A DNA stretch of 64,000 nt, taken from assembly GCA_963771355.1 (NCBI GenBank), contig CAVYTA010000005.1, positions 864,001-928,000 on the forward strand, in the 5' to 3' direction. Shown here piece after piece: positions 539-21,661 of this stretch. Under the pieces are notes generated by a model that did no database searches, was not told the origin of the DNA, and worked only from the letters and a program-made list of their open reading frames with translations. Source of the stretch: an uncultured Candidatus Rokubacteria bacterium (GTDB lineage: Bacteria; Methylomirabilota; Methylomirabilia; Rokubacteriales; CSP1-6). The translations under genes were made by a program, and so were the position numbers. Positions within the stretch are counted from its first letter, which is position 1; each line of letters opens with the position of its first letter.

Positions 539-982
539 TCACCTCCTCTCCGTTCTGACTGATAGACCTTTCTGACTGATAGACTTTCGATACAGGGACA
601 GACCGCGGCCGGGCGATGGCGGGCTGGACCTCCACGACCGGAGCAATCCGCGGAGCTGCCCGCGAACCTGCTCCAGATCGGTCAGCACCCGCTCGATGTT
701 CTCAAGCTTGACGTTGACGAGACGCAGGACGTGCGTGCACGGGGTCTGCCCGGAACGCTTGAGCGCCGCAATCTGCTTGATCTCATCCAGCCGGAAGCCG
801 AGCCGCCGCGCCTGAGTGACAAACACGAGCAGCGCCAGCGTGTCGTCGGTGTAGACGCGATACCCAGCGGCCGTGCGGCGGGCGGGAGGTAAGATGCCGG
901 CTCGCTCATAGAGGCGAAGCGCCTTGCGGCTGACGCCACTCTTCGCCGCTACCTCACCGATCAGCAGCCCGCTCCTCGCCAT
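539..982 (-). CDS. MerR-family heavy-metal-responsive regulator, C-terminal frameshift
   Basis: LIGEVAAKSGVSRKALRLYE...GYRVY HTH and PCTHV; the metal-binding AAVCPCIES segment lies in another frame near 585-610. Confidence 0.85.
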   Translation of the reverse strand: MARSGLLIGEVAAKSGVSRKALRLYERAGILPPARRTAAGYRVYTDDTLALLVFVTQARRLGFRLDEIKQIAALKRSGQTPCTHVLRLVNVKLENIERVLTDLEQVRGQLRGLLRSWRSSPPSPGRGLSLYRKSISQKGLSVRTERR

Positions 983-2480: not shown

Positions 2481-2786
2481 TCAGCGGAGCATCCAGGGCA
2501 TCACCCAGAGCGCTAGCGAGGCCGGCGTAGCGATCCAGAGCATGACGCGCTGCTGGTGCCCCCCAGCGCCTCGACGGTATGCGAAGTAGTGCCCGAGGGC
2601 GAGCGAGGCGATCGACACGGGAATCAGGACGATCTGCAGCTCCGCCATCCTGGCGGCGAGAGCTCCGCTCGCCACGCCCAGCACTCCGAGCGAGGCGGTC
2701 AGGAGCGTCGCCGGTCAGAGAACCCAGAGGAACGCCGAGCCAGCCGACAGCCCGCTTGACCATCCCACCTTGTGATCATTCAACAT
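2481..2786 (-). CDS. MerT-like small membrane protein with in-frame TGA (putative selenocysteine) at codon 24
   Basis: ATG at 2786 with AAAGGA RBS; MLNDHKVGWSSGLSAGSAFLWVL-TGA(2715-2717)-PATLL... continues in frame into the 2481-2684 ORF; TM layout resembles MerT. Confidence 0.6.
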
Positions 2787-3450
2787 GTGCGATTCCTTTC
2801 TTGGTCCACGTGTCAGCGTCTGGGACTCGCCCACCGGGGGTGGGCTGGGCTATGCCGCGATAGAGGTACGAGCCCACCCGGGGTCCCGCAATGTAGCCCC
2901 GATTCACCTCCAAGGCTTCGAACCCACCCGATCGCAAGAGCCGGTCGATCGGTCGGTTCCAGTGGCAGCCACCCGCCACCCTCCGCCAGAGCGGCGTGAG
3001 CCGATCTTGCCACCGGACAACTGTCGGATCCGGCGAGCGTCCATGCTCGATGAAGATCAGCCGGCCCTGGGGCCGTAGCACACGACGCACCTCCTTGAGA
3101 GCCGCCACGGGATCCGGGATCGTGCAGAGCGTCCAGGTTGTAACGACGTCGTCCACCGACCCGGCCGCAAGCGGAATGGCCTCTGCCGGCCGGCAGAGGA
3201 ACTCCACCGGGAAGGCCGCGCCCTCCGCCCGCGAACGGGCCATCCGGAGCAGCTCCTCCGAGGGGTCCAGCGCGTAGAGCTTCAGCACCTCTCGGCTGTA
3301 GATCGGAAGGTTGAGTCCCGAGCCCACTCCGACCTCGAGGACCACACCTCTCGCCAGGGATACCCAGCGCGCCCGCTCGGGGCGGAGCGTACGGCTCCGC
3401 ATGGCGAGATCGGTGAGCGTCGGCAACACATGCTTGCGGTAGAGACCCAT
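2776..3450 (-). CDS. Class I SAM-dependent methyltransferase
   Basis: VLEVGVGSG motif I, DDVVTTWTLCTI, GGCHWNR. Confidence 0.9.
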   Translation of the reverse strand: MGLYRKHVLPTLTDLAMRSRTLRPERARWVSLARGVVLEVGVGSGLNLPIYSREVLKLYALDPSEELLRMARSRAEGAAFPVEFLCRPAEAIPLAAGSVDDVVTTWTLCTIPDPVAALKEVRRVLRPQGRLIFIEHGRSPDPTVVRWQDRLTPLWRRVAGGCHWNRPIDRLLRSGGFEALEVNRGYIAGPRVGSYLYRGIAQPTPGGRVPDADTWTKKGIAHVE

Positions 3451-3475
3451 CAGCCACCTCCTAGTAGCCAACCGC

Positions 3476-4181
3476 TCACCGGTGCATCTCCTGGCCCAAG
3501 GCTGCGACCAGCATCTGCACTACGGTGTCCTGCGCTACTCGCGGGTCGAACGGCTGCGGAGACGGATCCCAGTGGCGATGAACGGCCCAGAAGACCAGCG
3601 TCTCGATGATGAGCCGGGCGGCCACCATCGGGTCTGGGACCGGGCGCAACCGCCCCGCCCGGATGCCCCGCTCGAGGTATTGGGTCAGCAGGACCAGCAA
3701 CGCCTCGCGCCCCTGCGTGAACCAGAGCTTCGCGAGCGCCGGGTATTCAACCGCGCATCGGTCGACGAGCTTGATGCCGGTCCTGTTCCGCGCCATGGTT
3801 TCGTAGAGCTCACCCAGGATCCTGGTCAGCTCGGTCGCGTCCCCGGCGCCTCCGTGCCGCCTGAGTGCGACGAGGAGCGTCGGGCTCGCCGGCTGCTCGC
3901 GCGAGCCGCTGCTTGACCCACTGAAGAGTCCGGCCGCGGGCAGGCGTGCGGACCGGCAGACTTGGCGGCAGCGCGATCGGGCGCGGCGCGTCAGCGGAGC
4001 GGAGCACCGTGTCGAAGAGGGCGTCCTTGCTCTTCACGTAGAGGTAGACCGTACCCTTCGCCAGGCCCATCGCTTCGGCGATGTCACTCATCTGGGTGCG
4101 TCGGTACCCCTGGGCAATGAAGACACGCGTCGCAGCGTCGATGAGATCCTGAAAGCGCGAAGCGGGCACCCTGCGTGGCAC
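3476..4181 (-). CDS. TetR/AcrR regulator, frameshifted near 3800-3880
   Basis: HTH DIAEAMGLAKGTVYLY in ORF 3810-4181; C-terminal domain in ORF 3476-3796. Confidence 0.8.
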
Positions 4182-4188
4182 GGCTCCG

Positions 4189-4216
4189 ACTTTACATGAC
4201 CGACCCGGTCAGTCAA
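4189..4216 (-). promoter_or_regulatory. TetR promoter with overlapping palindromic operator
   Basis: Dyad TGACCGACC-C-GGTCAGTCA (4197-4215) overlapping TTGACT-16 nt-TAAAGT. Confidence 0.65.
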
Positions 4217-4261
4217 CTAGATTTTTCGAGGCCCCCGCTCGCCGGGGCTCTCTCGCCCTTC

Positions 4262-4693
4262 TCATCCGTCGCCCGCTCTGGCCGCCCGATCAGCGGCGAT
4301 GGTCTTCAACGAATCCTGTTCCAGCTTGAGCACGTGCTTGGCTACTACCCGGTAGGTCCACTGGTTGGGTGCGGTCTCACTGTTGAACTGCTCGTCGGTC
4401 AGCCCGATGAGTGAGCCGATCAGTCGCGCCCGCTCGGCGAGCCACTCGGCCAGGAGGCGTTGCATTGGCGACGCCGTGATCCGCGCCTCGTAGCGGCCCT
4501 CGAGGATCTGCGCGGTATGGATCTTTTCGTGATCGATATCGTTCGTGATGAGGGTCCAGACGTCCTTTCCTTGCGCGCAAGAGTGCGAGGATGGCGCCGC
4601 GAGCTCCCGATCGGACGCCTCGAGCAGGGCGTCCATGGTAGTCATCGTCTGCTCCATCAGCTCACGGATCGCACTGTGGACAGTCGCTGCCAT
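4262..4693 (-). CDS. DinB-like helical protein
   Basis: DHEKIH and WTYRVVAKHV motifs; GGAGG RBS. Confidence 0.6.
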   Translation of the reverse strand: MAATVHSAIRELMEQTMTTMDALLEASDRELAAPSSHSCAQGKDVWTLITNDIDHEKIHTAQILEGRYEARITASPMQRLLAEWLAERARLIGSLIGLTDEQFNSETAPNQWTYRVVAKHVLKLEQDSLKTIAADRAARAGDG

Positions 4694-4741
4694 AGTTGCC
4701 TCCTGTCGGAGAGTCACCGCTTCGCCAGGGTCCAGAGGCCG

Positions 4742-5680
4742 TCATCGCCTGGTCGGTGCCTTTGCGTACGATACCGCGGCTCGACCCGGACCGCCGGCCG
4801 CTTCAAGCAGGTCCACGAAGGCTCGTCCGCTCGCCCCCAGCGTTCGGGCCTCGTTGTGGATCACGTGAAAGTGACGTCGAATGCGATGCCCACGAAGCCG
4901 GAGCGCGGATAGCTGCCCGGTTCGGAGCTCGCCGACAATCGCGTGCGACGACACGAACGCGACGCCCAAGCCCGCCATCACCGCCTGCTTGATCGCCTCG
5001 GTGTGGCCCAGCTCCATCGTGGGTCCGATTCGGGCGCCGACGTGCTGCAGCGCTCGCTCGGTGACCTGACGACTGGCCGACCCCTCCTCCCGGATGAGCA
5101 GCCGTTCCGCGCCGAGCAGGTTGGGGGCGATCTCGCGGCGTCGGCTCCAACGATGCCCCGGCGGCACAATGAGCACCAGCTCATCACAAATTCCCTTGGC
5201 CAGGCATTCCTCGCCGGGGGGGAACCCGTGTCCCCCGACCACGCCGAGATCGAGCTCGTTGGCGCGGATCTGTGCCTCGATGTCGGCTGAATTGGCGATC
5301 CGCACGCGCAGGGTGATCCCGGGGTACTGCCTCTGGAAGCGAGCGGCGAGGTGAGGGAGAACGTAGATCCCGGGAGTGGTACTGGCGCCGATCAGCAGCG
5401 AGCCGCGCTTCAGCCCCTCGAGCTCGGCGACGGTCTCGCGCGCGCTGGCAAGGGTCGCGAGGACACGTTGTGCGTGCTCCTCGAAGATTCGCCCGGCCTC
5501 GGTGAGAGCGACTCGCCGATTGAGCCGGTCGAAGAGGCGGGCGCCCAGCTCTCGTTCGAGCTCCGCTACGTGCTGAGAGAGGGCCGGTTGACTGAGGTGC
5601 AGAACCTCCGCCGCGGCCCGGAAGCTTCCGGCGCGCGCCACCGCGAGAAATACCTCGACCTGCCGGAGGGTGATCTGCAT
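4742..5680 (-). CDS. LysR-family regulator, CysL-like
   Basis: LSQPALSQHV HTH; GASTTPGIYVLP, REEGSASR, EAIKQAVMAGLG. Confidence 0.92.
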   Translation of the reverse strand: MQITLRQVEVFLAVARAGSFRAAAEVLHLSQPALSQHVAELERELGARLFDRLNRRVALTEAGRIFEEHAQRVLATLASARETVAELEGLKRGSLLIGASTTPGIYVLPHLAARFQRQYPGITLRVRIANSADIEAQIRANELDLGVVGGHGFPPGEECLAKGICDELVLIVPPGHRWSRRREIAPNLLGAERLLIREEGSASRQVTERALQHVGARIGPTMELGHTEAIKQAVMAGLGVAFVSSHAIVGELRTGQLSALRLRGHRIRRHFHVIHNEARTLGASGRAFVDLLEAAGGPGRAAVSYAKAPTRR

Positions 5681-5751
5681 AAGCCAGGCCTTATCGAACG
5701 GATAACAACACGCGATTGGAGCTTAATCAAGCCTGCCCTTAGCTTCGAGGT

Positions 5752-6580
5752 GTGGATCTCGTTGCGCAGGAGCCCACGGTTCGGGTGGCAATCTTCGCCG
5801 CGGCCTTGAGCTTGGTCGCGGCCGGCGAGATCGTGGCCCCGCGGCGCCCCCTCACCGTCCCCCGCCGGTCTCGATGGCCCAGCAACCTCGCCATCGTTCT
5901 TCTCAACACCCTCTTGGTGCGGGCGTTGCTCCCCGTGACCGCGGTGAGCATGGCCATGCTGGCGGAGGAGCGAGGTTGGGGACTCTTTCACGCGTCCGGA
6001 CCCTTACCCGCCTGGCTCGTCGTTCCGGTTACCGTGGTCTTCCTGGATCTCGCCATTTACCTCCAGCACGTCCTCTTTCATGCCGTGCCTATTCTGTGGC
6101 GGTTGCATCGCATGCATCACGCCGACCTGGACGTGGACGTGACCACGGGCGCGCGGTTCCATCCCCTCGAGATCGTGCTTTCGATGCTCCTGAAGTTCGG
6201 GGTGATCGCCGCGCTCGGAGCTCCGCCGCTCGCCGTCCTCGTGTTCGAGCTCCTTCTCAGTACCGGCTCCCTGTTCAACCATGGAAATCTTCGTCTGCCG
6301 CTTCCGAGCCGACGGAATCCTCCGCTGGATCGTCGTGACCCCCGATATGCATCGCGTCCACCACTCCGTTGCCCCGGGGGAGACCAATCGCAATTTCGGG
6401 TTCACGTTCTCCTGGTGGGATTGGATCGGCGGAACCTACCGGGCGCAGCCAGCCGGCGGCCACGCCCGAATGTTGCTCGGGATCGCTCAGTTCCGGGACG
6501 TGAGCGACCTACGCCTTGATCGCCTCTTGCTCCAGCCTCTTCTCGACGGCCCGGGGTCGTCGATAGGTACGGGCCGCTAG
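5752..6580 (+). CDS. Sterol desaturase/fatty acid hydroxylase family, frameshift near 6300
   Basis: His boxes QHVLFH and LHRMHH, FNHGN, then VTPDMHRVHHS in the second frame. Confidence 0.85.
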
Positions 6581-6718
6581 TGTTGGCCTGGTCCCGTCCC
6601 GACCGGTCGGGCAATCCCCCGATCCAAGACCTCCCCGGTCGCCTTGGGCACGAAGCGAACGCGTTCCGCCTGTGCCGCCTTGTTCTTCATGGCGAGCTCG
6701 ATGAGTGTCGGCACATAC

Positions 6719-7856
6719 TTAGCGTAGACGCCCATCCCCCTCCTCTCGCCGGGATGCTTCGTAGCGTTGTCTAATGTCGGCCTCGGTCACTGGATACGCC
6801 GGTACAAGATCGCCATCGAGATTGCGGCGGATCACTCCGCTGTCGATTGCTCGCTCCTCCGCTCTGGCCTTGTCGTCGCTCGACCATCCGCGCGTCACCG
6901 GTAAACGCGAGAACTTCCCATAGTGAACGAGCGATTCCACCCAGGCCACCTCTTCGCTTCCCAGCCGTTCTCTCGCGCACTGGAGAAGCTCCTCGGAGGC
7001 CATCTCCAGGCGGCGCAATACAAAGCGGCCCGGTATCGCGAGGTCCGCATACTGCTCGAAAGCGTCTCGCATACCGTCGGAGGATCGTGCCGCGCGTCGT
7101 GATCCGCCCCACCCCGGTATCCCGCCCCGCCTTCCGTCACTTGCTCCTGGCGATGAAACACCGCCAGGAATGATCCGTCCACGACGTAGAACTTCTGGTG
7201 GATCCGATCCCGCTCGAGAACCATGACGTCTATCCCGTGTTCTTCGATATCGCGCCTGACGATCTTCAGCCCATGGGCGATGACCTCGTCGAGATCGACC
7301 ACTCGACGGTAGGTCACTCCGGCACCGAGCCGGTCGCTCAAGGTCGCCCAGAACGACGCCACCTGCGGTAGTCGAGGGGACTTGCTGACCGCCACGATGG
7401 TCCGGCGGGCCTGCCCCATGGCCTCACAAATCAACTGCGCAAACTCATCCGTCGTCGCGGCGTCCCACTCGTGGTGGGCGAGCGCCGCTGCGAACGGTCG
7501 ATGAGCCGGCTGGCGACCGCGATGATCTCATCGCATATGCCGTCGCAGAATGTCCCGCCGGCATCGCCTCGTTAGTGCGCCATAGCAGCTCCGAGCTCAG
7601 GGACCGCCAGGCGATGTTCGGACTGATCGCATAGTACTGACGGCGTCGCAATCTCCGATACACACTGCCGACAAGACCCCGTTCCTGTAGCTGCCGCAGC
7701 GCACTGCCGACCTCGGTCGAGCACTCCGCTGAGCATCGACACGATCGCTCTCTTCGGCACCGGACCGCACGTCAACACGACCCCATACACTTGGGTCGCG
7801 GTCCGATCGAACCCGAGCTCGCTCATGAGCTGAAACAGCCGCACTCTATCGTCCAA
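6719..7856 (-). pseudogene. TrmB-like regulator (HTH plus PLD-like domain), several frameshifts
   Basis: ELGFDRTATQVYGVVL start, YYAISPNIA and HQKFYVVD segments lie in successive frames. Confidence 0.55.
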
Positions 7857-7859
7857 CCC

Positions 7860-9061
7860 GTCCCCGCCTTTCGCCCCTGAGCATATTACGAAGTGCTTCG
7901 AGCGCGGCTCGCCGCCCGTGGCCCAGAGCGCGGCCGCGGCGAGCGTGCCGATCACGCCCGCCGCGCCCCCCGCCGCGAAGCCCACGACATACCCATGCTG
8001 CGTGATGATGGGCCCCAGCCCAAAGGAACCGAGCGCGAACCCCAGATAGAGGGACGTGCTATAGCCCCCCATGACGAGCCCCCTGGTCGCGGGCGTCGCG
8101 GCGGACGCCAGGGCTACGCCAACGGCGACAAACGCGATCCCGCTGACCGCACCGAAGACGGCCACCAGCAGGAGCAAGGGCGTCTGGCCACCGACGTGAG
8201 GCAGAAGAATCGTCGCGACAGATGCGACCAGGACGCCAACGATTGCGCAGGGAGCGGGCCGCCCGGTGCGATCCACGAGCCAGCCCGCCGGCAACCGGGC
8301 CACCGTGTTGGCGAGCCGAGGACGAGGAATACGAAGCCGATGGCTGCGGGCGTGAGTCCTCGATCATGGCCGAGCAGCGGAAAGAAGCTGAAGACGACAC
8401 CCTGAATGAGAAGGCCGCTGATGGACAGGATCCACCCGGCCCAGACGGCGGCATTGCCTCTGATGTCGGTAAACGTTGCGCCGGATCGAGAGGTCGGAAG
8501 GGCGGGGGGCCGAATGGGGAGGACGAGGCCAACGATCAGAGCGAAGGCGACGCCGACGGCGCTCGTAACGAATGCGGCACGGTAGCCCCACCATTCGGCA
8601 GCGAGGCCGCCCAGGTACGGCCCGACTCCAATCGCTGCCATAGTGCGCCGTCGAGTACCACGCGAAGGCGTGTCCAGCCCGGCCCGGAGCCGCCGCGTCG
8701 CCCACCAACGAGAGGGCGCTCGGTGTGAACGCCGCCACTCCGAGACCCGCGAGGCCATAGATTGCCATCAGGGCGAGCGGATCTCGACCAGAGGGAGGAG
8801 CAGGGAGGTCCCGATGCTGACGATCATTCCTCCTAGCAGGAACCGGCGCCGGCCCCAAACGTCCGAGGCACGACCGAACGGGATGGAGCCGACCGCCGCC
8901 ACCATCATGTGCGCACCGAGGATCAGCCCGACCCCCGTGGCGGAGGCCCCGTGGGTGACGGCATAGAGGGGCAGGATCGGACCACGCATCTGCGCCGCGG
9001 CGTAGTGGAGGAACGTAAGCAGGCAAACGACGGCGAGAACGCTAAGAGGATTCGACGCCAA
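7860..9061 (-). pseudogene. MFS transporter, several frameshifts
   Basis: GRASDVWGRRRF and GWLVDRTG motif-A copies across four frames. Confidence 0.8.
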
Positions 9062-9210
9062 GGCAAAGTCCCCCTGTCAACAGCTTTGAGGGACCTTACA
9101 GTCGCGGGCCTGGAGGCCCACGAACCCGTGGATCGAGGAGCGACCCACATCATTCCCTAACGTCGCCCTCGACAATAGTCTTCCATCGGACGTTCGTCAA
9201 GCTAAGCGGT

Positions 9211-9480
9211 CTATCGTTCTTCCGCTGCGTACGCCCCATACGCGAACGTCCGACGGTACGTGCGACCACAAGATCGAACCGTATCACCCGGCTACCGGGA
9301 GGCCACGTCATCGCAGGCGGGGCAGTCGCCCGGTGAGCGAGCGTCGCGGACCAGCGACCGGCGTCTTCTACACGCGCAGAGCGTGTCCCGCGCAGTGTGG
9401 GCACTCCACCAGGTCCCCCGACCGGGTTCCGTCGGGCAACGCGATCAGCGCGCCACAGTCGGGGCAGCCACTACCGGCAT
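9211..9480 (-). pseudogene. Double zinc-ribbon (LysW-like) Cys-rich protein, frameshifted
   Basis: Pieces CPDCGALIALPDGTRSGDLVECPHC and CPACDD...GDTVRSCGRTYRRTFAYGAYAAEER; ATG overlaps the upstream TGA (TGATG). Confidence 0.6.
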
Positions 9481-9695
9481 CACCGAATCCCAAGAGCCGC
9501 TGCAGCCGTCGCGGTCAAGCCGACGACAACTCGTCGTCTACGGTGATGACGGGGACTGCATCGCCCGGTTCGCGTGATGAGCTCATCGCGCGTGCGGATC
9601 TCGGAACGTTTTGGCGTGAAGGCGAGGCATGAGAAAGAAACTCTTTCGCGCTGAAAGCTGTAGGTGAGAATGACGGTGATCTGCCGAGTCGCCAC
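9480..9695 (-). pseudogene. Glutaredoxin/NrdH-like redoxin, heavily degraded
   Basis: Pieces in shifting frames: RQITV, AKEFLS, RDELITRTG, VPVITVDD. Confidence 0.5.
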
Positions 9696-9696
9696 G

Positions 9697-10362
9697 CTAG
9701 TATCTCGTGAGCAAGCCCCCGAAGATCCAGTGGCCGATCTTGAACGCTTCCGTGACGGTGGCTCCAGAGCCTTGAGCGGCCGGGTTCGCGTCTCGCCAGG
9801 CCCTCAGATGTTCTTCCGACCGGAAGAAGTTGATCGTCGTTCAGAGCGAGTCGAAGGCCTTGCACGGCTCGTCACCGCGCGCTCCGAACCACACCATCAG
9901 CCCTTCGGCGGTCCCCACCACTCCGTCCGGCGTTGTGGCGATCTTCAGCGGTTCACCGCAGTGATGGCAGGACGACGTGATCTCGACGGGTTCTCCGACC
10001 ATCGGCGCGATGCCGAGTGCGTCGGTCGCGCAGCAGGCGTAGCGCTCGCGGGCGCCTGACAGACGCAGGCGAAACGGCGTTGCCGCGGCCGAGAACGGGT
10101 AGGCGACGTCGATCCGACCAGTGCGGATCCGGATCAGGTCGTCAGCATCGAGCGCGACGAGGGCATCGTGGACCGCCTCGGCCCGACGGTCAGGCGAGCC
10201 GGCGACGATGTCCTCGACGGGAATCGGCCCGCCTCGCTGCAGAAAGGTCCGGAGGATGAGCCGGACGAGAGGCTGCTGCCGAGCCGCCCGGCGAGCGGCC
10301 TGCCGCTCAAGCGGATCGAGGGCCTTCAATTCGTCAGCCGTCAGGATCACCAGGTTTGCCAC
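9697..10362 (-). CDS. merB: Organomercurial lyase MerB-like, in-frame TGA (putative Sec) at the second catalytic Cys
   Basis: AYPFS and ACCATDALG (Cys96/Asp99 equivalent); after TGA (9841-9843) the frame continues [20 protein letters not shown]...[17 protein letters not shown] to TAG at 9697. Confidence 0.85.
9811..9828 (-). promoter_or_regulatory. Candidate bacterial SECIS element of merB
   Basis: UUCUUCC-GGUC-GGAAGAA perfect 7-bp stem; loop starts 19 nt after the UGA. Confidence 0.7.
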
Positions 10363-10389
10363 GATCGGCCTCCCCTCTCACTCGAACCG

Positions 10390-10420
10390 AGCGTAGAGTC
10401 TGTAGTAGCTCCAGACTCAA
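10390..10420 (-). promoter_or_regulatory. MerR-family operator/promoter driving the merB operon
   Basis: TTGAGT-19 nt-TACGCT with dyad GAGTCTGTAG..CTCCAGACTC. Confidence 0.85.
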
Positions 10421-10446
10421 GGATTATTTCAGAAGGGGGCAAGGGC

Positions 10447-10879
10447 ATGGCGGACACGGGGCGGATCGCCATCGGCGCGCTGTCGAAGCGGACCGGTACC
10501 AATATCGAGACCATCCGCTACTACGAGCGCGTCAGGTTGCTGCCCGCTCCGGCTCGGAGCTCGGGAGGCTACCGCCTGTATGGGACTGGGCACCTGAAGC
10601 GGCTGAGCTTCATCCGCCGGGCGCGCGCGCTCGGGTTCTCGCTCGCCGAGGTGCGAACCCTGCTGGCTCTTGCAGATCAGCGACGGCGCCCGTGCGCCGA
10701 GGTGCGGGTGGTGGCGGCGGCTCACCTTGATGACGTGAAAGGAAGATCGCGACTTGAAGGCGATGGAACATGCGCTGGCAGAGACCATCGCGCGCTGTGA
10801 GGCGGGTAGCGGCTCGCACTGTCCGGTGATCGACGCGCTATGTACCACCCGAGGCTACCCAGCCCAGAAGCGCGGATAG
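10447..10879 (+). CDS. MerR-family regulator with three-Cys metal site, copy 1, frameshift near 10750
   Basis: IETIRYYER, RRPCAEV, then ARCEAGSGSHCPVIDAL in the second frame. Confidence 0.85.
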
Positions 10880-10889
10880 AGCTCCCGGA

Positions 10890-11150
10890 GTTGCCAAGAC
10901 CAACCGGACGTCTGGGCGGCGGCGCTCGGTCAGATAGCGCTCCCGCACCGTCGGATCGCTCAGCGGCGTGCCGCTGGCGCAGCACATGATGGAGCGCGCG
11001 TCGTCGGTATGCGGCAGGCCCACGGCGTGGCCCAGCTCGTGGCCGCCCACCTCGACCAGGAGCGGCTCCGACTCCGGGTGGACGCCCCCAAGAGGCAGCA
11101 TCAGGTCGATGCGCACCGGGCGCTTGATCGCCCCGAGATCGTCGTGTTCG
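10890..11150 (-). pseudogene. Matrixin/metzincin peptidase fragment
   Basis: HELGHAVGLPH...SIM (HExxHxxGxxH plus Met-turn). Confidence 0.65.
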
Positions 11151-11169
11151 AGGTAGGTCCGGTTGGGCA

Positions 11170-12270
11170 CCTGAGGAAACCTCTCAGGGACGAGATTCTC
11201 CTCTCGGGCACCCGTGCCCAGATTGCCATCAAGCTCTTCGGTGCCGATCTCGGCATCTTGAGAACGAAGGCGGGCGAGATCCGCGACGCGATGGCCAGGG
11301 TCGCCGGAATCGTGGACCTGCTCGTCGAGCCTCAGGTCGGAGTGCCCCAGGTCCAGATCAATCTGGACCGGCGCGCCGCGGCGGCGGTCGGGCTTCGCGC
11401 GGAAGATCTCACGGAGACGGTGGAGACCGCCTTCAGCGGCCACGTCGTCTCCCAGGTGCTGCAGGAACAGCGAAGCTACGACATCCTCGTGCGCCTGGAC
11501 GACACCGCCCGGGAATCGGTCGGACGATCCGCCGAACCCTCATCGACACCCCCAGCGGTGCTCGCGTCCCCATCGGCCAGCCCGCCGGAGGTCCGGGTCG
11601 ATGCGGGACCGAACACCATCAACCGGGATAACGTGCAGCGGCGCATCATCGTGCAGGCCAACGTCACGGGCCGGGACCTCGGCAGCGTGATCGCCGAGGT
11701 CCGGCAGGCGATCGCCGCGCGGGTCGCGCTGCCGCAGGGATACTTCGTCCAGTACGGCGGGCAGTTCGAGTCGCAGGAGCGGGCGGTTCGGCAGATCGCG
11801 CTGCTTTCTGCCGCGGCCATCGGAGGGATCTTCCTCCTCCTCTACCTGGCGCTCCGTTCCAGCCGTTTGGCCACGCTCGTGATGGCCAACTTGCCGCTCG
11901 CGCTGATCGGCGGGGTCGTCATGGTGTTCGTGGCGGGCGGCACGCTGTCGATCGCCTCCCTCATCGGATTCATCGCGCTCTTCGGCATCGCGACCCGGAA
12001 CGGCATCATGCTCATCACCCACTACCGCCACCTCATGGAGGAGGAGGGCGTGGGCTTTCGGGACGCCATCGTTCAGGGATCGATGGAGCGGCTGAGCCCC
12101 ATCCTCATGACGGCGCTCGTCACCGGTATCGGCCTCGTTCCGTTGGCGCTCGGCGCCGGTCAACCGGGGAAGAGATCCAGCAGCCCATGGCTATCGTGAT
12201 CCTGGGCGGGATTGCCACCTCGACGGCGCTCAACATGATCGTCATTCCTGCGCTCTACCGTGAAGTTCGG
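11170..12270 (+). pseudogene. C-terminal fragment of a CzcA/CusA-type RND transporter
   Basis: YGGQFESQ, NLPLALIGG, FGIATRNG, ERLSPILMTAL; no N-terminal part. Confidence 0.8.
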
Positions 12271-12363
12271 ACGCGCGGAGGCGCGGCGGACGCGCGAGGA
12301 GCCGGCCGTAGGTACGGCCGCTCTCAGCGGCTAGCTGCCGGCTCATCCGGGCAGCACATCACC

Positions 12364-12555
12364 ATGCTGCTGCGGAGCATAGTCGCGCTTGGCGTCGTGG
12401 CTACCATCGCGGTGCTGATCGCGTGGGTGCTTGTTCGGCTGATGTGGTCGCCGCCCTCGTCTACCGCCGCTCGGGCAGCGCTGGTCTGCACTATTCTCAT
12501 CCTGACCGCTATTGGCCTGTGGGTCTTCTTCGTGCTGCCCGCATACTGGGACTGA
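12364..12555 (+). CDS. Small two-TM membrane protein
   Basis: Hydrophobic 63-aa ORF ending VLPAYWD. Confidence 0.45.
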   Translation: MLLRSIVALGVVATIAVLIAWVLVRLMWSPPSSTAARAALVCTILILTAIGLWVFFVLPAYWD

Positions 12556-12691
12556 TCTCGGAGGGCGGATTGAGCCGGTCACACGGAGCGACATATCCAC
12601 GCTGTGCGCCGCCGGGAGCGAGGAGCCCGCGCGCGGGGCGACCGCGGTCGCCGGCGATTGATCTGCTGGACCCTCCGCGAGGAGATTCCTG

Positions 12692-12860
12692 ATGGATAGC
12701 GTCTCCTTTGAGATGGTACTCATCGCGCTCGGCACCCTGGCCAATGGGTTCTTCTTCGAGTCCGAGTTCGCCCTGGTATCTCGCGCATCAGCCGGCTGGC
12801 CCAGCTGCGCGAGCAGGCCGTGCGGGGCGCGGCTGCCGCGATGCGCCTCAAGGAGAAGCC
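12692..12860 (+). pseudogene. N-terminal remnant of a CNNM/hemolysin-family (DUF21) protein
   Basis: LANGFFFESEFALVSR motif; truncated. Confidence 0.6.
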
Positions 12861-12861
12861 C

Positions 12862-12968
12862 CTGCTCGTTCGTAGAGGCGAAGCGCCTTGCGGCTGGCGC
12901 CGTTCTTCGCCGCCATCTCACCGATCAGCAGCCCGTTTCTCGCCATGACTGGAGGTAAGTCCTGCCCC
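12862..12968 (-). pseudogene. Remnant copy of the 539-982 MerR gene start plus half its operator
   Basis: MARNGLLIGEMAAKNGASRKALRLYERAG, near-identical to the 982 gene start. Confidence 0.75.
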
Positions 12969-13069
12969 GCGGGACTCCGAGCGCTCCGTCTCGAAGCAGG
13001 AAGTAGCAGAAACACAGCACATGCTGCCCGGAGGCGGCAAACGACCTCTTGAAAGGAGCGCACTTCCTC

Positions 13070-13399
13070 ATGGCTTCGGTGATCAACTCGATCGTGCTCT
13101 TCCTGGTGGCGGGCCTCTGCGAGATTGGGGGCGGCTACCTCGTGTGGCAGTGGTGGCGTAACGGGAAGTCGGCGTTCATCGGTGCTCTAGGAGCCGCGGT
13201 GCTCGTCCTCTACGGCATCGTGCCGACATACCAGCCGCAGCACTTCGGGCGTGTCTACGCGGCCTACGGCGGCGTTTTCGTCGTCCTCTCGGTCATCTGG
13301 GGTTGGGGCGTGGATGGCATCGCGCCAGACCGCTTCGACATCCTCGGCGGGCTCATCTGCTTGATCGGCGTCGCGGTGATCATGTACTGGCCCCGGTAG
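13070..13399 (+). CDS. ynfA: YnfA (UPF0060) family small membrane protein
   Basis: [30 protein letters not shown]. Confidence 0.9.
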
Positions 13400-13440
13400 G
13401 CCGCCCGGGAGGCTGCGATCAGCGCGGGCATGCCTACCTC

Positions 13441-13764
13441 CTAGCGCGTCGGCGGCGGCGCTCCCGAAGGCGGAGAACCCTTCGTCGACGCGCGGAACCC
13501 GAGGCGATCTATAGCCTCGATCATCTGCGGGACCGCCACCTGTGCGGGGTCGAAGGTCACGACCGCCTCCTTCGCCCTCAGGCTCACATCTGCCCGACTC
13601 AGACCCCTCAGCCCTTCCAGGGCCTTCTTCACTCCAACGGGGCAGGCGCCTCAGGTCATTCCGTCCACCGTGAGGACCACCGTGGACGTCGCGGCCTACA
13701 ACGCGGTGGATGCAACGACCAGCAGGCCCAGTAGCACGGCGACGACCGACACCCATCGATTCAC
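13441..13764 (-). CDS. merP: MerP-like periplasmic HMA protein with GMT-U-GAC (TGA, putative Sec); also a TAG in the signal peptide
   Basis: GTG at 13764 with AGGAGG RBS; MNRWVSVVAVLLGLLVVASTAL-TAG(13696)-AATSTVVLTVDGMT-TGA(13651)-GACPVGVKKAL...EAVVTFD aligns to MerP VWAATQTVTLAVPGMTCAACPITVKKAL. Confidence 0.8.
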
Positions 13765-14163
13765 TGCGTTCCTCCTATGGTGTGGCCGGTGTGAGACTGA
13801 TCAGCGGTCATCACGTACGCCAGCAGATCGGAGGTGAACTCGGGGAAATGATCGAGCACGATGGTCGTAGCGACGACCAGGCTCGCCAGGATCAGCAGCC
13901 CGAGCGTGATGCGACTGCCTGCCGTCCGGCAGGCTGGCCAGCGCGTCACAGCGCCGCCGCTCCCGCCGGTACAGGACGAAGCCGGCGACGATGCCGATGA
14001 TCCCGGCCGGGACCAGCAGCCAACGGTACTGCATCGTCGTCGCCATGAACGCGCCACTCCCAAGCCCAAGCACGATCACTGCGAGAGGGAGAAGACAGCA
14101 GAGCGAGGCGAGCGCCGCCCCCATCCACGCGACCAAGCCAGCAGCGAGCGCTGCACGTTTCAT
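13761..14163 (-). CDS. merT: MerT-like mercuric transport protein, frameshift near 13935
   Basis: ASLCCLLPLAVIVLG, QYRWLL, cytoplasmic C-x(4)-C; stop overlaps the merP start (GTGA). Confidence 0.8.
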
Positions 14164-14172
14164 AGTGTCCGC

Positions 14173-14328
14173 CTACCCTTCTGCTGGGGCGTACGCCCCA
14201 TACTCGAACGTCAGACGGTACGTGCGACCGCAGCATCGAACCGTATCTCCCGGCTTCACGTCGTCGGGGAGGGTCAGTACGTCATCGCACTCGGGGCAAC
14301 TCACCCGACAAGCGAGCGTCGCTCTCAC
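14173..14328 (-). CDS. Single zinc-ribbon protein, the distal half of the 9211-9480 gene
   Basis: CPECDDVLTLPDDVKPGDTVRCCGRTYRLTFEYGAYA. Confidence 0.6.
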   Translation of the reverse strand: MRATLACRVSCPECDDVLTLPDDVKPGDTVRCCGRTYRLTFEYGAYAPAEG

Positions 14329-14336
14329 CTGAGCTG

Positions 14337-14367
14337 AGGGTAGAGTCTGTAGTAACTCCAGACTCAA
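14337..14367 (-). promoter_or_regulatory. Second copy of the MerR-family operator/promoter
   Basis: TTGAGT-19 nt-TACCCT with dyad GAGTCTGTAGTAACTCCAGACTC. Confidence 0.85.
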
Positions 14368-14392
14368 GGACTATTCGGGGGGGGGCAAGGGC

Positions 14393-14798
14393 ATGGCGGA
14401 CACGGGGCGGATCGCCATCGGCGCGCTGTCGAAGCACACGGGGACGAACATCGAGACCATCCGCTACTACGAGCGCGTCGGGTTGCTGCCCGCTCCGGCT
14501 CGGAGCTCGGGAGGCTACCGCCTGTATGGGACGGGGCACCTGAAGCGGCTGAGCTTCATCCGCCGGGCCCGCGCTCGGGTTCTCGCTCGCCGAGGTGCGA
14601 ACGCTGCTGACTCTGGCAGATCGAGCGACGGCGCCCGTGCGCCGAGGTGCGGGTGGTGGTGGCGGCGCACCTTGATGACGTGAAAGGGAAGATCGCCGAC
14701 TTGAAGGCGATGGGGCATGCGCTGGCAGAGACCATCGCGCGCTGCGAGGCGGGGAGCGGCTCCCGCACTGTCCGGTGATCGACGCGCTCGATGCTTAG
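14393..14798 (+). CDS. MerR-family regulator, copy 2, frameshifted
   Basis: Near-identical to the 10447 copy at DNA level. Confidence 0.85.
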
Positions 14799-14813
14799 GG
14801 GCCAGCTCGTCAC

Positions 14814-15426
14814 CTAGGGGATCGTTAGCGGACGCAGGGCGCGCCTCGCTTCGCCGATAATCCTGATGGCCGAGGTAGCGAACATTGCGGCGGATCAGGA
14901 GACCCACCGCGATGTCCGGCCACGCGGAGCCCGTGAGGGCGACCCCGCCCGCCGCCATCAGCACTCCGGCATTGGCCATCACATCATTCCGGGAGCAGAG
15001 CCACGCGGAGCGCATGTTGATGTCGTCACCCCGACGCCGCCAGAGCAGGAACAGACAGATCACGTTGGCGGCCAACGCGAGGAGGCCGATGCCCCCCATG
15101 AGCCCGGCGGCCGGGACGATACCTCGGGCGATTTTCAGGATTGCTTCCAGGAGGACGCCGAGGCCGAAGATTGCCATCACGGTCCCTTTGAGCAGCGCCG
15201 CGCGCGCCTGCCAGACGCTACCCCGGCTCACGACATAGAGGCTGAAGCCGTACACGAGCGCGTCCCCGAGCATGTCCACCGAGTCCGCCAGGAGGGCCGT
15301 CGAGCCGGCGAGAAGCCCCGCACCAAACTCCACCAGGAACATAGCGGCATTGATACACAGGACGATCTGGAGCACCCGGCGCTGCCGGGCGGGAACATCA
15401 ACCATCACCTCACAGCAGTCTTTCAC
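14814..15426 (-). CDS. Cation diffusion facilitator-type transporter, frameshift near the C-terminus
   Basis: GSTALLADSVDMLGDA, DINMRSAWLCSRND, WPD; N-terminal DCC. Confidence 0.85.
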
Positions 15427-16740
15427 GGCACATTCATTATGCATGAGGGGCCCGGCTCGGAGCCACGCTTGCGGCGATGCGACCCGACGGCGGGACCGTC
15501 CCGCCTTCGATCGGAGAGCATGGAGTGCTGTGCGGGCACGTCTTCGTGTTTCAACTGGATGGCGTGTTTCCTAGTGCTCTCCGCCCGGAGGAGGAAGCTG
15601 CCCTCGGTGACCACCCTCTCCCCGGGGTGCAGCCCGGACACGACCGCATAGAACTCGCCCACCGGGACCCAGGCGTACCGTGCGCTGGATGAACTCCCCT
15701 CCTCGTCCTGGCGGCCACGAAGACCACCTGGCGCCCGCCGAGCGTCTGGACGGCCGCCTTCGGCACCAGCCGCCGTCGCCCGCCGCGGTCCGAAGACCAC
15801 GGTCACGAACATCCCCAGCCGAAGCCGCCCTCCGGGTTCGGCACCTCGACCCGGACCTTGGCCGTCCGCGCCTGGGGGTCGACCCGCGGGTCGATATAGG
15901 TCACGCGGCCCCGGAGCGCGTGCCGGGGTAGGCCGGCGTCTGATGGCGGCCTCGGAGCCGACGCCGACGCCGCGAAGTCCTGCTCGTAGAGATCGCCGAC
16001 CACCCAGACCTCGAGAGGTCGGTCACGACGAAGAGCTCCTGCCCATGCCGACCACCTGGCCGGGATTCGCGGACCGGCCGGTAATGACGCCGCCGATCGG
16101 CGCCGGTACCGTCACTTGGAGATGACCTGAGTGGACCTCGGAGGCCTCGACCTGTTCTGCCGTAGCCCGAGCAGCAGCAGCCGCTGGCGCGCGGCCGCGA
16201 CCTCGGTCGCGTGGCTGGCATGGACCGCCGTCACCTCCTCGAGCTCCTGACGGCTCGCCGCGCCGATCGCCGCGAGCGCCTGCGTGCGTTCGCGCTTCTG
16301 GTGGTCGGCCTCCAGCATGGCCCCCATGGAGAGATACTTCGTCTGGGCGTCGGCGAGCTCCGTGCTGAAGACGTGGCGAGCGGCTGCCGCGCCCCACCGC
16401 CGCGCCCAGCTCGACATGCACCTTGCGGACGATGCCGGCCGCGACGGGCGTGACTTTGGTCTCCCGGTAGGCGTTCGCCACCACACTGCCGGGCACGATG
16501 ACCTCCATTACGTGGAGCCGGCCGTCACCGGCGCGGTCTTGATCCCGGCTCGCGTTACCGCCTCGGGGTTCAGCACGACTCGACGTCCGCGGCGGCCGCC
16601 GGCGATGGCCGGCCGTCACGGGAGCCGCCGCCGGGGGGCGGCGGCCGATCGACACCCGAGCGGCGCGCCACCACAGTGCCGGCAGCCCCGAGCGCCGTGA
16701 AGCCGAGCGCGCCGCCAACCCAGAGAAGCGCGGCGACCGA
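15423..16740 (-). pseudogene. RND periplasmic adaptor (CusB/CzcB-like), many frameshifts
   Basis: VPAPIGGVI, YIDPRVDPQARTAKVRVEVPN, VVSGLHPGERVVTEGSFLL. Confidence 0.8.
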
Positions 16741-16745
16741 TCGGC

Positions 16746-18039
16746 TCACGATGCTTCTCCGATGGCTCGCTCGATCTCCACCGCGGCGTCATAGACCTGC
16801 TTGAGCACCTCCGTATACCCGTCTCGACCTCGATGAGCGGCGCTGCTCGGCGATGACGTCGAGCAGCGGACCGCGGCCGAGCCGTAGGCTCTGGCGGACG
16901 ACGTCGAGATTCTGCCGCGCCACGTCCCGCACGCCGCGCTCGTAGAGTCTCGAGCGAGCGCCGGGCCGCCTCGTACTGGGTGAAGGCCGCGGCGACCTCC
17001 TGGCGCACCATGAGCTCGAGCGAATTCCCGCCGCCGCTCCGGCCGCTCGCGCCTCGGCCTGCGCCGCCGCGATGTTGCCCTCGTTGCGGTTGCGCACGGG
17101 CAGGGTGATCGTGACCCCGCCGCCGACAATAATGGAAAGACGTCCTGGATCGGGCGCGTCGCCCCGCGGTCGTCAGGCCGCTCAGGTCGAAGCCGAAGTC
17201 CTGGCGCTGGTAGCCGACGTTGACGCTGGCGTCCCAGCGCCCCTCGGCCTCTTCCTTCCGGATCCGCGCCCGCGCCATCGCCGACCTCGGCCCGGGCCGC
17301 GCGGAGGTCGGGCCGGTCGGCGAGCGCCTGCGCTCGAGGCCCTCGTCGCGGTCGATCCGCACCGCCGGCGGCGTCCAGCTCGCCCCGCCGACTCGAGCGG
17401 CTCTCCGGCGGCAAGCCCGGCGAGCGCCTGAGCTGGAGCGTGCAGCACCTCGACCCGGCTCCAGGACTGCTGGGCTGGCCTCCAGGCGATTGACCTCGAC
17501 GAGCAGCAGGTTCTCGTCGAGCGGGGGCGCCGCCCCGCGGCGCACGCGCTCCCCGACGAGGCCGAGCGCCTGCCGGTTCGCCTGCGAGCAGCTCTCGCGT
17601 GACGGCAGGTTGCGCCGCGCGGCCAGCAGCTCCCCGGCCTTGAGCCGGATCTCGGCCCGCAGCCGCCGCTCCCGCTCGGCGAGCTGCGCCTGCTTGACCC
17701 CAGCTCGCGCTCGGCCACCCGACGCGGCCCTCCTTCCGGCCGTTCAGGTCGAGCGGCAGCGTCACGCCCACCGATGAGGTTGTTGTCCGGGCCCGGTGAC
17801 GCTTTCTGGCCCGCGAGGTCGAGCATCGGGTTCGGGCGAAGCCCCGCCTGCTGGACGCGCGCCGCGCGCCGCCTCCACCTCGGCGCGCGCCGCCTGCAGC
17901 TCGGGGTGTTCCGCGAGCGCCCGCGCGACGAGCTCGTCGACCGTGACTCGCGCCGCGGTCGGCGGCGCTCTGGGCCGACGCCACGACGGCGATCGCCACC
18001 AGGAGCAGCAGGACGGGCTCCCGCCGAGCGTCGCATCAC
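16746..18039 (-). pseudogene. TolC/CzcC-family outer membrane factor, many frameshifts
   Basis: QAGLRPNP, GVTLPLDL, RNRNEGNIAAA, LLDVIAEQR. Confidence 0.8.
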
Positions 18040-18047
18040 GGCACCTC

Positions 18048-18455
18048 CTAGCGCACCGGCACGGAGAACCGCGTCGAGCCCTTCCCCGCCGGCCCGTCCC
18101 AGGTCACCGTCACCTGCCGCGCGCCGCTGTCGGGGAAGCTGATCGTCCCCTGGTAGCGGCCCGGGCGCTTGTCCGGCGCAGCGTGGCCCCGGCGATCATC
18201 GGCGCCATGCCCGGCATCGCCATGCTGGTGCTGAGGCACCTTGCCGGCATCGACCGGCTTCCCGTCTTGGCCGAGGTGAACTCCAGCGACGAAGTGTTCT
18301 TCCCTGCGTCCACTGCCCGGACTCGCTCGCAGCGTCACGCACGTCCTTGGTCTTCTGCGTCTGGATGGCCTTGAGCTCGGCCCCCGGCCGGGCCGAGCGA
18401 GCCCGCCAGCGATCAGCAGACCGATCACGACACTCAGCACGATTGCACGTGTCAT
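18048..18455 (-). pseudogene. FixH/YtkA-like Met-rich periplasmic protein, frameshifted
   Basis: Signal peptide, SMAMPGMAPM, PGRYQGTISF. Confidence 0.6.
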
Positions 18456-18467
18456 TCGTCCTCCTTG

Positions 18468-21400: not shown

Positions 21401-21661
21401 GCCGAGGACGAGCGCACCACCCGCACGCCCGGCAGTCCCTGCAGGCTGACCGTGAGCGGATAGGTGATCTGGTCCTCGACTTCCTGCGGCGAGCGGCCCG
21501 GCCAGTCGGTGAAGACGATGACCTGGTTGTCGGAGAGGTCCGGGATGGCGTCGATCGGCGTGGTGAGCAAGCGCCCAGTAGCCCCAGCCCCCAAGCAGCA
21601 GGAAGACGACGATCACCAGGAAGCGGTTGCGCAGCGAGACCTCGATCAGCCAGTTGATCAT
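18468..21661 (-). pseudogene. cusA: CusA/SilA-type heavy-metal RND permease, many frameshifts
   Basis: [74 protein letters not shown]. Confidence 0.88.

Follow-up and report, generated by a model that had tools for sequence, protein, structure and literature searches.

The stretch of DNA analysed here, which we call the window, comprises 64,000 nucleotides (nt) of an uncultured Candidatus Rokubacteria bacterium (G000:C5:864001-928000; contig CAVYTA010000005.1 of assembly GCA_963771355.1, a genome of 5.5 Mb with 70% G+C in 8 contigs). It raises the question of whether three in-frame TGA codons, in genes that resemble parts of mercury resistance (mer) systems, are read as selenocysteine (Sec), and whether these genes work together. 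A preliminary description of the same DNA had proposed that they do, as a MerR-controlled relay in which MerP-like, MerT-like and MerB-like proteins use selenolates to bind, transport and cleave an organometal. The three TGAs, reported at 9841, 13651 and 2715, are indeed there, all on the minus strand (9843-9841, 13653-13651 and 2717-2715). Our answer, to which we give a probability of about three in four, is that they are predicted Sec codons, two within what is left of an operon under MerR control that would act through selenolates on a mercury-type metal or organometal, and the third in a gene of a separate operon. Throughout, MerB(U), Grx(U) and MerP(U) denote the Sec-containing forms of the lyase, the glutaredoxin and MerP; where Sec is placed, how the genes are ordered, what kind of promoter precedes them and how rarely MerA occurs are read from sequence and comparison.

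Selenocysteine machinery and in-frame UGA codons

The organism is able to read UGA as Sec. The machinery that the preliminary description had proposed to look for is present in the genome: a tRNA-Sec (C7:111447-111544), SelA (501 bits) and the SelB wing domain (73.8 bits), both near the tRNA-Sec on contig 7, and SelD (266 bits) on contig 4. Three fdhA-type genes, which served as a positive control, have TGA at the canonical Sec site HQAR(L/V)-U-HS, and in each of them a hairpin starts about 12 nt 3' of the TGA and its loop begins with GG.

The two marks of a bacterial selenoprotein, a conserved in-frame UGA and a predicted stem-loop of the Sec insertion sequence (SECIS) type shortly 3' of it, were found for all three genes of the window. 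TGA occupies the position in 77 of 80 MerB(U) loci (the best 80 of 124 relatives from a scan of species genomes, to which all counts over 80 loci refer), in 6/6 HMA genes and in 9/9 copies of the small membrane protein. Sec is the best reading of all three TGAs, a prediction that is strongly supported for the MerB-like and HMA genes and well supported for the third gene; the earlier argument that these are not random nonsense changes but probable Sec codons at ligand positions agrees with the comparison. The claim that homology continues past each TGA was borne out for MerB (Pfam, 1.7e-29) and HMA (3.3e-13); the third gene has no Pfam match and reaches 23.9 bits against a cut-off of 130 for merT_RC607. 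A hairpin does follow each TGA, at distances that differ slightly from the 19-32 nt that had been given: the stem starts 13 nt after the UGA in MerB, 26 nt after it in HMA and, counting the inner stem, 18 nt after it in the small membrane gene. Related-strain contigs span 2715-2717 and 9841-9843 with no difference there among the matches listed. Contigs of runs X1 (13632-14276) and X4 (13526-13797) equal the window across the TGA at 13651-13653; these runs may be the assembly's own samples, and they are therefore not independent support for that codon.

A predicted selenocysteine form of MerB

The lyase gene MerB(U) (9697..10362, minus strand; read-through frame 9700-10362) has 221 codons followed by a TAG stop, with the TGA (9843-9841) as residue 174; it starts at GTG, with the Shine-Dalgarno sequence GGGGAGG 6 nt upstream. 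The Pfam MerB domain (PF03243) matches residues 90-215 at 1.7e-29, running across the TGA over profile positions 1-126 of 126 (102.8 bits, gathering score 27), and a profile comparison with MerB2 (5C17) gave a match at 1.4e-32. The protein remains below both NCBIfam MerB equivalog cut-offs (76.9 vs 193 and 56.4 vs 200 bits; NF009710 and NF033555). It also remains below that of the MerB-like selenoprotein SaoL (NF040728; 53.6 vs 140 bits), having the motif L-U-T and not C-U, and scans of the neighbouring genes gave no Sao family. Judged by NCBIfam cut-offs, the MerB(U) clade falls outside both SaoL and canonical MerB.

Residues C111, D114 and U174 align to MerB Cys96, Asp99 and Cys159, and all three columns are invariant. 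Catalytic position 159 would hold Sec and not Cys, with C111 and D114 present; the predicted Sec is chemically analogous to Cys159, not MerB's defining residue. U174 matches the first C of F-C-C in PDB 1S6L, a Cys that the C160S mutant 3F2G retains, and MerB Cys117 has a counterpart in C132. MerB(U) aligns with its relatives over the full length, with differences mainly at third codon positions, and it is the sole operon gene that looks intact in the window.

The read-through search of 41 related genomes gave a MerB(U) match in 34 (G000 and G016 counted), and among 44 places listed, 41 contain TGA. When 21 copies were aligned, 19 had TGA in a single column and the other 2 had Cys there (SICLTLNFF). 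Among the 80 loci, 64 have titles with Rokubacteria, Rokuibacteriota or Methylomirabilota, and the alternation of TGA with TGY codons that had been suggested as a check was found there: besides the 77 TGA there are 2 Cys (TGC), and 1 locus is unreadable.

The predicted SECIS-type hairpin, UCUUCC-GGUC-GGAAGA (9812..9827, minus strand), begins 13 nt after the UGA. In the Sec forms, 6/6 base pairs are kept in 76 of 77 genes and the GGUC loop in 75 of 77, and the codons that compose it are frozen: CGG in 77/77 (against 36% of the Arg codons in the rest of these genes), GAA in 72/77 (16% of Glu codons elsewhere) and TCG in 75/77 (44% of Ser codons elsewhere). The hairpin is absent from both Cys forms. 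In a divergent Sec clade the GGUC loop is retained on a different stem, GCUC-GGUC-GAGC, whose position is displaced by 4 nt. Database proteins end at the UGA: the best 120 of 684 clusters have 167-188 residues, cover 75-78% of the query and are named 'hypothetical', 'alkylmercury lyase-like' or 'organomercurial lyase'.

We also inspected ten MerB(U) paralogues without mer-like neighbours (L062, L065, L066, L070, L071, L073, L077, L105, L114 and L119). They are surrounded by luciferase-like monooxygenases, hydrolases, an amidase, a Rieske oxygenase, binding proteins and transport genes, and 3 of the 10 sit between luciferase-like monooxygenases and alpha/beta hydrolases. These contexts hint at a non-mercury role for part of the MerB(U) family.

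The MerP-like gene

The second TGA (13653-13651) is residue 10 of a read-through open reading frame (13444-13680, minus strand) that matches Pfam HMA over residues 2-62 at 3.3e-13. It reaches 96.0 bits, against a cut-off of 95, for the NCBIfam family NF041115 (UxxU metal-binding (seleno)protein), although its motif is U-G-A-C, i.e. UxxC and not UxxU. The MerP-like gene as a whole (13441..13764, minus strand) comprises a signal peptide, a TAG at 13698-13696 (codon 23) and then the HMA domain with GMT-U-GAC. Its start, GTG 13764, has GGAGG 6 nt upstream and a GTGA overlap with the MerT stop. Because of these features, and because the signal peptide of the relatives is in frame, we rejected a start at GTG 13680, i.e. 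a cytoplasmic protein, as the original design. The TAG aligns to Ala in the relative L081, and the X1 and X4 contigs are identical to the window here.

A hairpin, GGCCCU-GGA-AGGGCU (13610..13624, minus strand), begins 26 nt after the UGA. Six of the six Sec-HMA genes compared (the window and 5 relatives) have it as GGCCCU-GG(A/C)-AGGGCU, 26 nt after the first UGA; since its sequence is nearly invariant, it offers no covariation. The motif is UxxU in 4 of these genes and UxxC in 2 (window included), and related HMA domains carry Cys. Across the 80 loci the MerP motif was readable in 12 genes: 10 with UxxU, one with UxxC and one with CxxU. In L058, the closest relative that retains MerT and MerP, the signal peptide and the HMA domain of MerP (2689-2925 and upstream) are mutually out of frame, and the glutaredoxin match is partial and has no TGA, which suggests that the same genes may be decaying in a sister lineage.

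The operon in related genomes

In relatives, mostly metagenome-assembled genomes (MAGs) titled Rokubacteria or Methylomirabilota, MerR is divergent from an operon of MerB(U), a YruB-type glutaredoxin (UxxC), a protein of about 94 residues with two LysW-like Zn ribbons, MerT (Cys-Cys) and MerP (UxxU), in that order; such gene clusters are common among Rokubacteria. The MerB-glutaredoxin-Zn ribbon order occurs in 21 of the 80 loci, 12 of which run on into MerT and/or HMA, and a divergent MerR likewise in 21; contig ends cut many of the 80. The glutaredoxin has TGA at the first motif position in 26/26 loci. The redoxin and double Zn ribbon that the preliminary description had included in the system thus belong to it in relatives, but in the window the redoxin has no UxxC and the Zn-ribbon gene is interrupted. 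A transport step based on Sec, which it had also proposed, did not hold: the operon's real MerT has Cys-Cys, not Sec (13 of 14 loci).

L081 is an example of the intact operon. Its MerR has three Cys, its glutaredoxin has T-U-Q-S-C (83.8 bits vs 88.55 for GlrX_YruB), its MerT has Cys-Cys and a C-x4-C loop, and its MerP has a signal peptide and GMT-U-GT-U (NF041115, 113.5 bits). MerT and HMA are fused in G027, G039, G037 and G026, and some genomes add a MerE-like protein (MerE in G027).

Between MerR and MerB, a promoter TTGAGT-N19-TACnnT (pattern TTGAnn-N19-TAnnnT) with a dyad of 7-9 nt was found in 12 of 13 regions, both window copies counted. A mer operon is characterised by a MerR gene whose divergent promoter combines a 19-bp spacer with a dyad. 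The proposed control by MerR therefore stands as far as a promoter of the MerR type precedes the lyase, but both MerR copies of the window are frameshifted as assembled.

MerA, the other mark of a mer operon, was not above cut-off in G000, where the best match has 377 bits vs 454, and it exceeded the cut-off in only 2 of the 41 related genomes; no MerA substitute was found in the window. One contig, G022:C41 (L054/L136, 657-3521), has a divergent MerB(U) with HT-U-PLINFFCSVEH near a true MerA (571.7 bits), with HMA genes nearby. In this lineage, Sec-MerB occurs beside a conventional reductase.

Two further observations concern reductases. Outside the window, G000 has a flavoprotein pyridine-nucleotide disulfide oxidoreductase (G000:C6:100973-102304; L135 5974-7305, minus strand) with TGA in GGTCVNWG-U-IPKK. 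Here Sec replaces the second active-site Cys, there is no C-terminal Cys pair, and a GG-loop hairpin follows the UGA; among NCBIfam models it matches that of MerA best (345 bits, cut-off 454). In L037 (3192-4508; G027:C3) and L039 (3333-4649; G039:C116), a related oxidoreductase directly adjoins the MerB(U)-Grx(U) operon. It has C-L-G-x-G-U, shares 36% identity with the G000 protein, and could be the reductase partner that is otherwise missing from the operon.

State of the operon in the window

In G000 the operon is present as two partial copies, A and B, rearranged and for the most part broken. The duplication involves two segments: 10375-10815 corresponds to 14322-14762 (promoter and MerR, 87-97%), and 9211-9293 to 14173-14255 (end of the Zn-ribbon gene, 86%). 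No other copies of these operon genes were found in G000. The single intact relay of the preliminary description is thus not present in the window: the operon is split in two, MerT has a 4-nt insertion and MerP a TAG.

Copy A comprises MerR1, the promoter P1, MerB(U), a glutaredoxin remnant and a Zn-ribbon gene, with no MerT or MerP after them. P1 (10390..10420, minus strand), read from the sequence, is TTGAGT-N19-TACGCT with the dyad GAGTCTG-N9-CAGACTC; the stretch 'MSLELLQTL...', considered as the start of the Zn-ribbon protein, was rejected as such, being the MerR-type promoter. MerR copy 1 (10447..10870, plus strand) has two 1-nt deletions (near 10735-10755) compared with copy 2 and G005 and is frameshifted as assembled. 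The YruB-type glutaredoxin remnant (9480..9693, minus strand), recognised by DNA alignment with four relatives, has lost the T-U-Q-S-C motif to an 11-nt deletion near 9640 and has further indels, and tblastn found no intact glutaredoxin anywhere in G000. In the copy A double Zn-ribbon gene (9211..9480, minus strand), ribbon 1 is readable and a stop or frameshift follows (near 9365), with a 12-nt deletion in ribbon 2.

Copy B comprises MerR2, promoter P2 joined to one half of the Zn-ribbon gene, MerT with a frameshift, and the TAG-stopped MerP; it has no MerB or glutaredoxin. MerR copy 2 (14393..14815, plus strand) has several indels, and an otherwise identical X3 contig is two bases shorter at 14762. 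P2 (promoter/operator, 14322..14375, minus strand) is 87% identical to P1, and the second Zn ribbon alone (14173..14303, minus strand) is fused directly to it. The MerT-like gene (13761..14163, minus strand) has Cys-Cys in its first transmembrane helix and a C-x4-C loop; the 4-nt insertion (about 13932-13935) falls in this loop, C-D-A-L-A-C, and shifts the frame. The lyase is probably the only operon product that can still be made.

Contigs identical to the window cover 13632-14276 (X1), 13526-13797 and 13789-13939 (X4) and 14246-14410 (X3), and they therefore reproduce the TGA, the TAG, the 4-nt insertion and the P2-ribbon junction. On these identical contigs we rejected, for copy B, the view that all indels are assembly errors. 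We treat the defects of copy B as real, and those of the glutaredoxin, Zn-ribbon and MerR1 genes of copy A as apparent defects of the sequence as assembled.

Strain variants were observed in contigs of X5 and X6. One X5 contig continues from copy A at 14303, giving a canonical uninterrupted Zn-ribbon gene; one variant skips 378 nt after MerB (9293-9670), and in another the MerR1 region (10390-11022) is replaced by 16 other letters. Clearly, this locus is a rearrangement hotspot at the level of strains. Nearby, RND (CzcA-type) efflux genes (16500-21600 and 11009-12555) are represented by at least five frame-shifted pieces plus one C-terminal fragment. Elsewhere in G000, four RND genes are whole; the fragmentation is found only in this region, which has the look of a metal-resistance island that is decaying or was badly assembled. 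A second regulator of the MerR family, intact and 147 aa long, lies at 539-982 (minus strand), and a degraded look-alike of its N-terminus at 12509-13063 (minus strand), between the RND fragment and YnfA.

The small membrane protein with a predicted selenocysteine

The third TGA (2717-2715) is codon 24 of a gene for a small three-helix membrane protein (2481..2786, minus strand; 101 aa, no Cys), in the motif LWVL-U-PA. Pfam gave no match, and the NCBIfam match to merT_RC607 is weak (4e-5, 23.9 bits vs 130); the protein at 2484-2786 does not reach the family score of MerT (PF02411, NF010314 and NF033560). TGA stands at codon 24 in 9/9 copies, at identities down to 69%; among the 41 genomes searched, copies occur in two genomes of the same genus only, and six metagenome contigs add to these. 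In each of the 73 database clusters the protein begins immediately behind the TGA, and neither these clusters nor the 9 copies include a full-length Cys form. Variable columns by codon position are 6, 8 and 15 before the TGA and 30, 17 and 51 after it, the third position being the richest. The stem-loop after the UGA (2646..2697, minus strand) has z = -3.08, with 0/200 shuffles as stable.

The start of this gene overlaps by 11 nt the end of the gene for its upstream partner, an S-adenosylmethionine-dependent methyltransferase (2776..3471, minus strand; Pfam Methyltransf_11, 4.3e-22), which is preceded by a TetR gene, and the same layout is kept in G002 and G005. This conserved TetR-methyltransferase layout sets the small Sec gene apart from the MerR unit, which lies 7 kb away, and its place in the relay, as earlier proposed, has to be given up. 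The TetR gene (3476-4181, minus strand) shows a frame change near 3901, where contigs of three related-strain runs are one base shorter.

Proposed function and alternative readings

For an intact operon we infer a path of four steps. Periplasmic MerP(U) would capture the metal species, and MerT would pass it inward; MerB(U) would then cleave the carbon-metal bond through Cys111, Asp114 and Sec174, and the Sec-glutaredoxin with the Zn-ribbon protein would remove the metal or re-reduce the enzyme. Taken further, and only tentatively, Rokubacteria, a phylum abundant in soil, may have a selenium-based mer system without MerA, made up of a periplasmic bis-selenolate MerP, a MerB with selenolate at position 159, and a metal-removing Sec-glutaredoxin with a double Zn-ribbon protein; in such a system methylmercury or another organometal would be demethylated and the metal locked to selenium, not reduced and volatilised, and mer surveys would have missed it because its genes are cut at UGA.

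Several observations weigh against a selenolate operon of the mer type, with two Sec codons in its remains and the third elsewhere. As to the codons, folding of the 3' flanks, which had been suggested as a check, favoured the small membrane gene over its 200 shuffles but not the other two: the folding energies of the MerB (z = +1.08) and HMA (z = +0.92) hairpins are no better than shuffled, and so the case for both rests on conservation across relatives, not on stability. The main-clade MerB hairpin is almost invariant and hence offers no column-wise covariation, and covariation in the stem-loop of the small membrane gene is weak (90% of cells paired in 9 sequences, with 1 compensatory pair, matched by 58 of 500 shuffles). 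As to the state of the genes, the confirmation of copy B comes from runs that may be the very samples behind the assembly, and no near-identical contig of X1-X4 was found over 9150-9725 or 10302-10877, where the glutaredoxin, the copy A Zn-ribbon gene and MerR1 lie. Near-identical contigs differ from the window mainly by indels (11522, 12169, 12260 and 14762), and the X5 contig departs from it over 9329-9556 by 1 substitution and 6 gaps; some of the indels may be assembly errors rather than decay. As to function, about two thirds of the MerB(U) loci have no mer-like neighbours. The L081 MerR scores 125.9 bits as Hg-MerR (cut-off 150.85), 122.8 as CueR and 111.7 as CadR/PbrR, all below cut-off; these scores do not discriminate between the metals. 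Finally, import by MerT and MerP without MerA is hard to reconcile with simple detoxification.

The alternative that survives best accepts the Sec codons and changes the substrate to another soft metal (Cu, Ag, Au, Cd or Pb), an organometalloid, or a selenium or redox function, with a different bond cleaved. We regard it as possible without favouring it. It would fit the nearly equal MerR scores for Hg-, Cu- and Cd/Pb-type sensors, the failure of MerA to pass its cut-off in 39 of 41 genomes, the distance of MerB(U) from the MerB equivalog (76.9 vs 193) and the catabolic contexts of many paralogues, and a similar argument appears for SaoL in the accessible part of the preprint by Haft & Gwadz (bioRxiv 10.1101/2022.07.06.499078). 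Yet every recognisable part is mer-like, namely MerR, MerB with a triad of the Cys96/Asp99/Cys159 type, MerT, MerP and, in G027, MerE, and G022 has a divergent MerB(U) beside its true MerA.

We consider it unlikely that the window holds an intact, working relay of three selenoproteins whose frameshifts and stops are assembly errors in a strain-variable region. Differences between near-identical contigs that are mostly indels are a signature of consensus errors, the MerR2 indel at 14762 is missing in the otherwise identical X3 contig, and the X5 contig joins 9329 to 14303 as a canonical, uninterrupted Zn-ribbon gene. Against this, the MerT insertion, the MerP TAG and the P2-ribbon fusion are identical in the X1, X4 and X3 contigs, the glutaredoxin region is short of 11 nt that include UxxC and the Zn-ribbon gene of 12 nt, copy A has no MerT or MerP following and copy B no MerB or glutaredoxin, and the third Sec gene sits in another operon. 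That the TGAs are ordinary stops of truncated genes or pseudogenes, with no Sec, is very improbable: public annotation does end or start proteins at the TGA and pseudogenes are present in the surrounding region, but the same codon is TGA in 77/80, 9/9 and 6/6 homologues, conservation of the coding type continues in frame past it, the MerB site also occurs as Cys, the codon is followed by hairpins whose synonymous codons are fixed, and the Sec system is complete and used in fdhA.

We thus retain the reading of a MerR-controlled selenolate operon, in remains, with the small membrane protein apart from it. The window then holds one intact hidden selenoenzyme gene, one hidden gene for a Sec membrane protein and the wreck of the remaining operon. 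As a specimen it is poor and for the most part broken, and L081 or another intact relative would be better for experiments.

Comparison with known systems

A full-text search of the literature, supplements excluded, found no published description of this operon, and the earlier statement that the gene combination is undescribed holds within the literature searched. Sec forms of mer-type proteins are already known kinds, and the interest of the present ones lies in mercury-gene surveys and in selenoenzyme chemistry. Hg-Se bonds are very strong. A catalytic selenolate in the MerB fold therefore raises the question of how the product would be released, which also touches the linked Sec-glutaredoxin and Sec-MerP. 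As for the surveys of mercury-cycling genes, e.g. PMC8261052, these require, in the parts accessible, Cys96, Asp99 and Cys159 and work on called proteins, so that the MerB(U) clade, with its 684 database clusters cut at the Sec codon, is invisible to them. In the accessible text of the same study, Christakis et al. 2021 give one MerB for Rokubacteria and mention selenocysteine 0 times (PMC8261052).

The available parts of two reviews give SaoL as the only MerB-like selenoprotein, besides a MerT-like protein and the UxxU protein (PMC9312934, PMC13188914). SaoL, the 'selenocysteine-assisted organometallic lyase' (NF040728), is described in the part of the preprint available as a MerB-like protein with a C-U motif whose Sec aligns to Cys159, encoded in a nine-gene ABC-transporter locus of anaerobes; its authors state there that they knew of no mercury-resistance selenoprotein, and that part mentions neither Rokubacteria nor MerR (Haft & Gwadz, bioRxiv 10.1101/2022.07.06.499078). 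As far as SaoL is described there, the window MerB(U) resembles it as a MerB homologue with predicted Sec at the position aligned to Cys159 and as a protein cut at the UGA in databases. They differ in score (53.6 bits vs a cut-off of 140, with a match over residues 34-144 only), in motif (L-U-T, not C-U), in neighbours (MerR, glutaredoxin, Zn ribbon, MerT and MerP, whereas SaoL lies in the SAO ABC transporter locus) and in host (soil Rokubacteria-type MAGs as opposed to anaerobic Firmicutes, spirochaetes and deltaproteobacteria).

The UxxU protein corresponds, in the sections accessible, to the 'putative mercuric reductase' of the Olavius symbiont selenoproteome (PMC9312934, PMC13188914). The HMA protein of the window is like NF041115 in score (96 bits vs 95, with 113.5 in relatives) and in the shared GMT-U-x-x-U/C, but its own motif is UxxC and its signal peptide is interrupted by TAG. 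Selenoproteins of the MerT family are described, in the available text, as a PF02411 'putative mercuric transport protein' with C/SxxU and as a MerT/CopZ fusion, NF045683 (PMC13188914, bioRxiv 10.1101/2022.07.06.499078). The small protein of the window resembles these, as described there, in being a small membrane protein with predicted Sec in the first helix where MerT has Cys-Cys; unlike them, the 101-aa protein has no Pfam match, no Cys or cytoplasmic Cys pair, and a methyltransferase as partner under TetR.

The window MerB(U) is much nearer to canonical MerB than SaoL is. With MerB (plasmid R831b, PDB 1S6L and 3F0P; MerB2 5C17) it shares the full Pfam domain, the invariant counterparts of Cys96 and Asp99, and Cys117 as C132, while it differs in its predicted Sec for Cys159, in a score below the equivalog and in the lack of a MerA above cut-off in G000. 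The mer operon of the Tn21/Tn501 type has the order merR-merT-merP-merA, with or without merB. The operon of the Rokubacteria resembles it in the divergent MerR, the promoter with a 19-bp spacer and dyad operator, MerT, the periplasmic MerP and MerB, and differs from it in mostly lacking MerA, in the predicted Sec at ligand positions of MerP, MerB and the glutaredoxin, and in the extra glutaredoxin and double Zn-ribbon protein.

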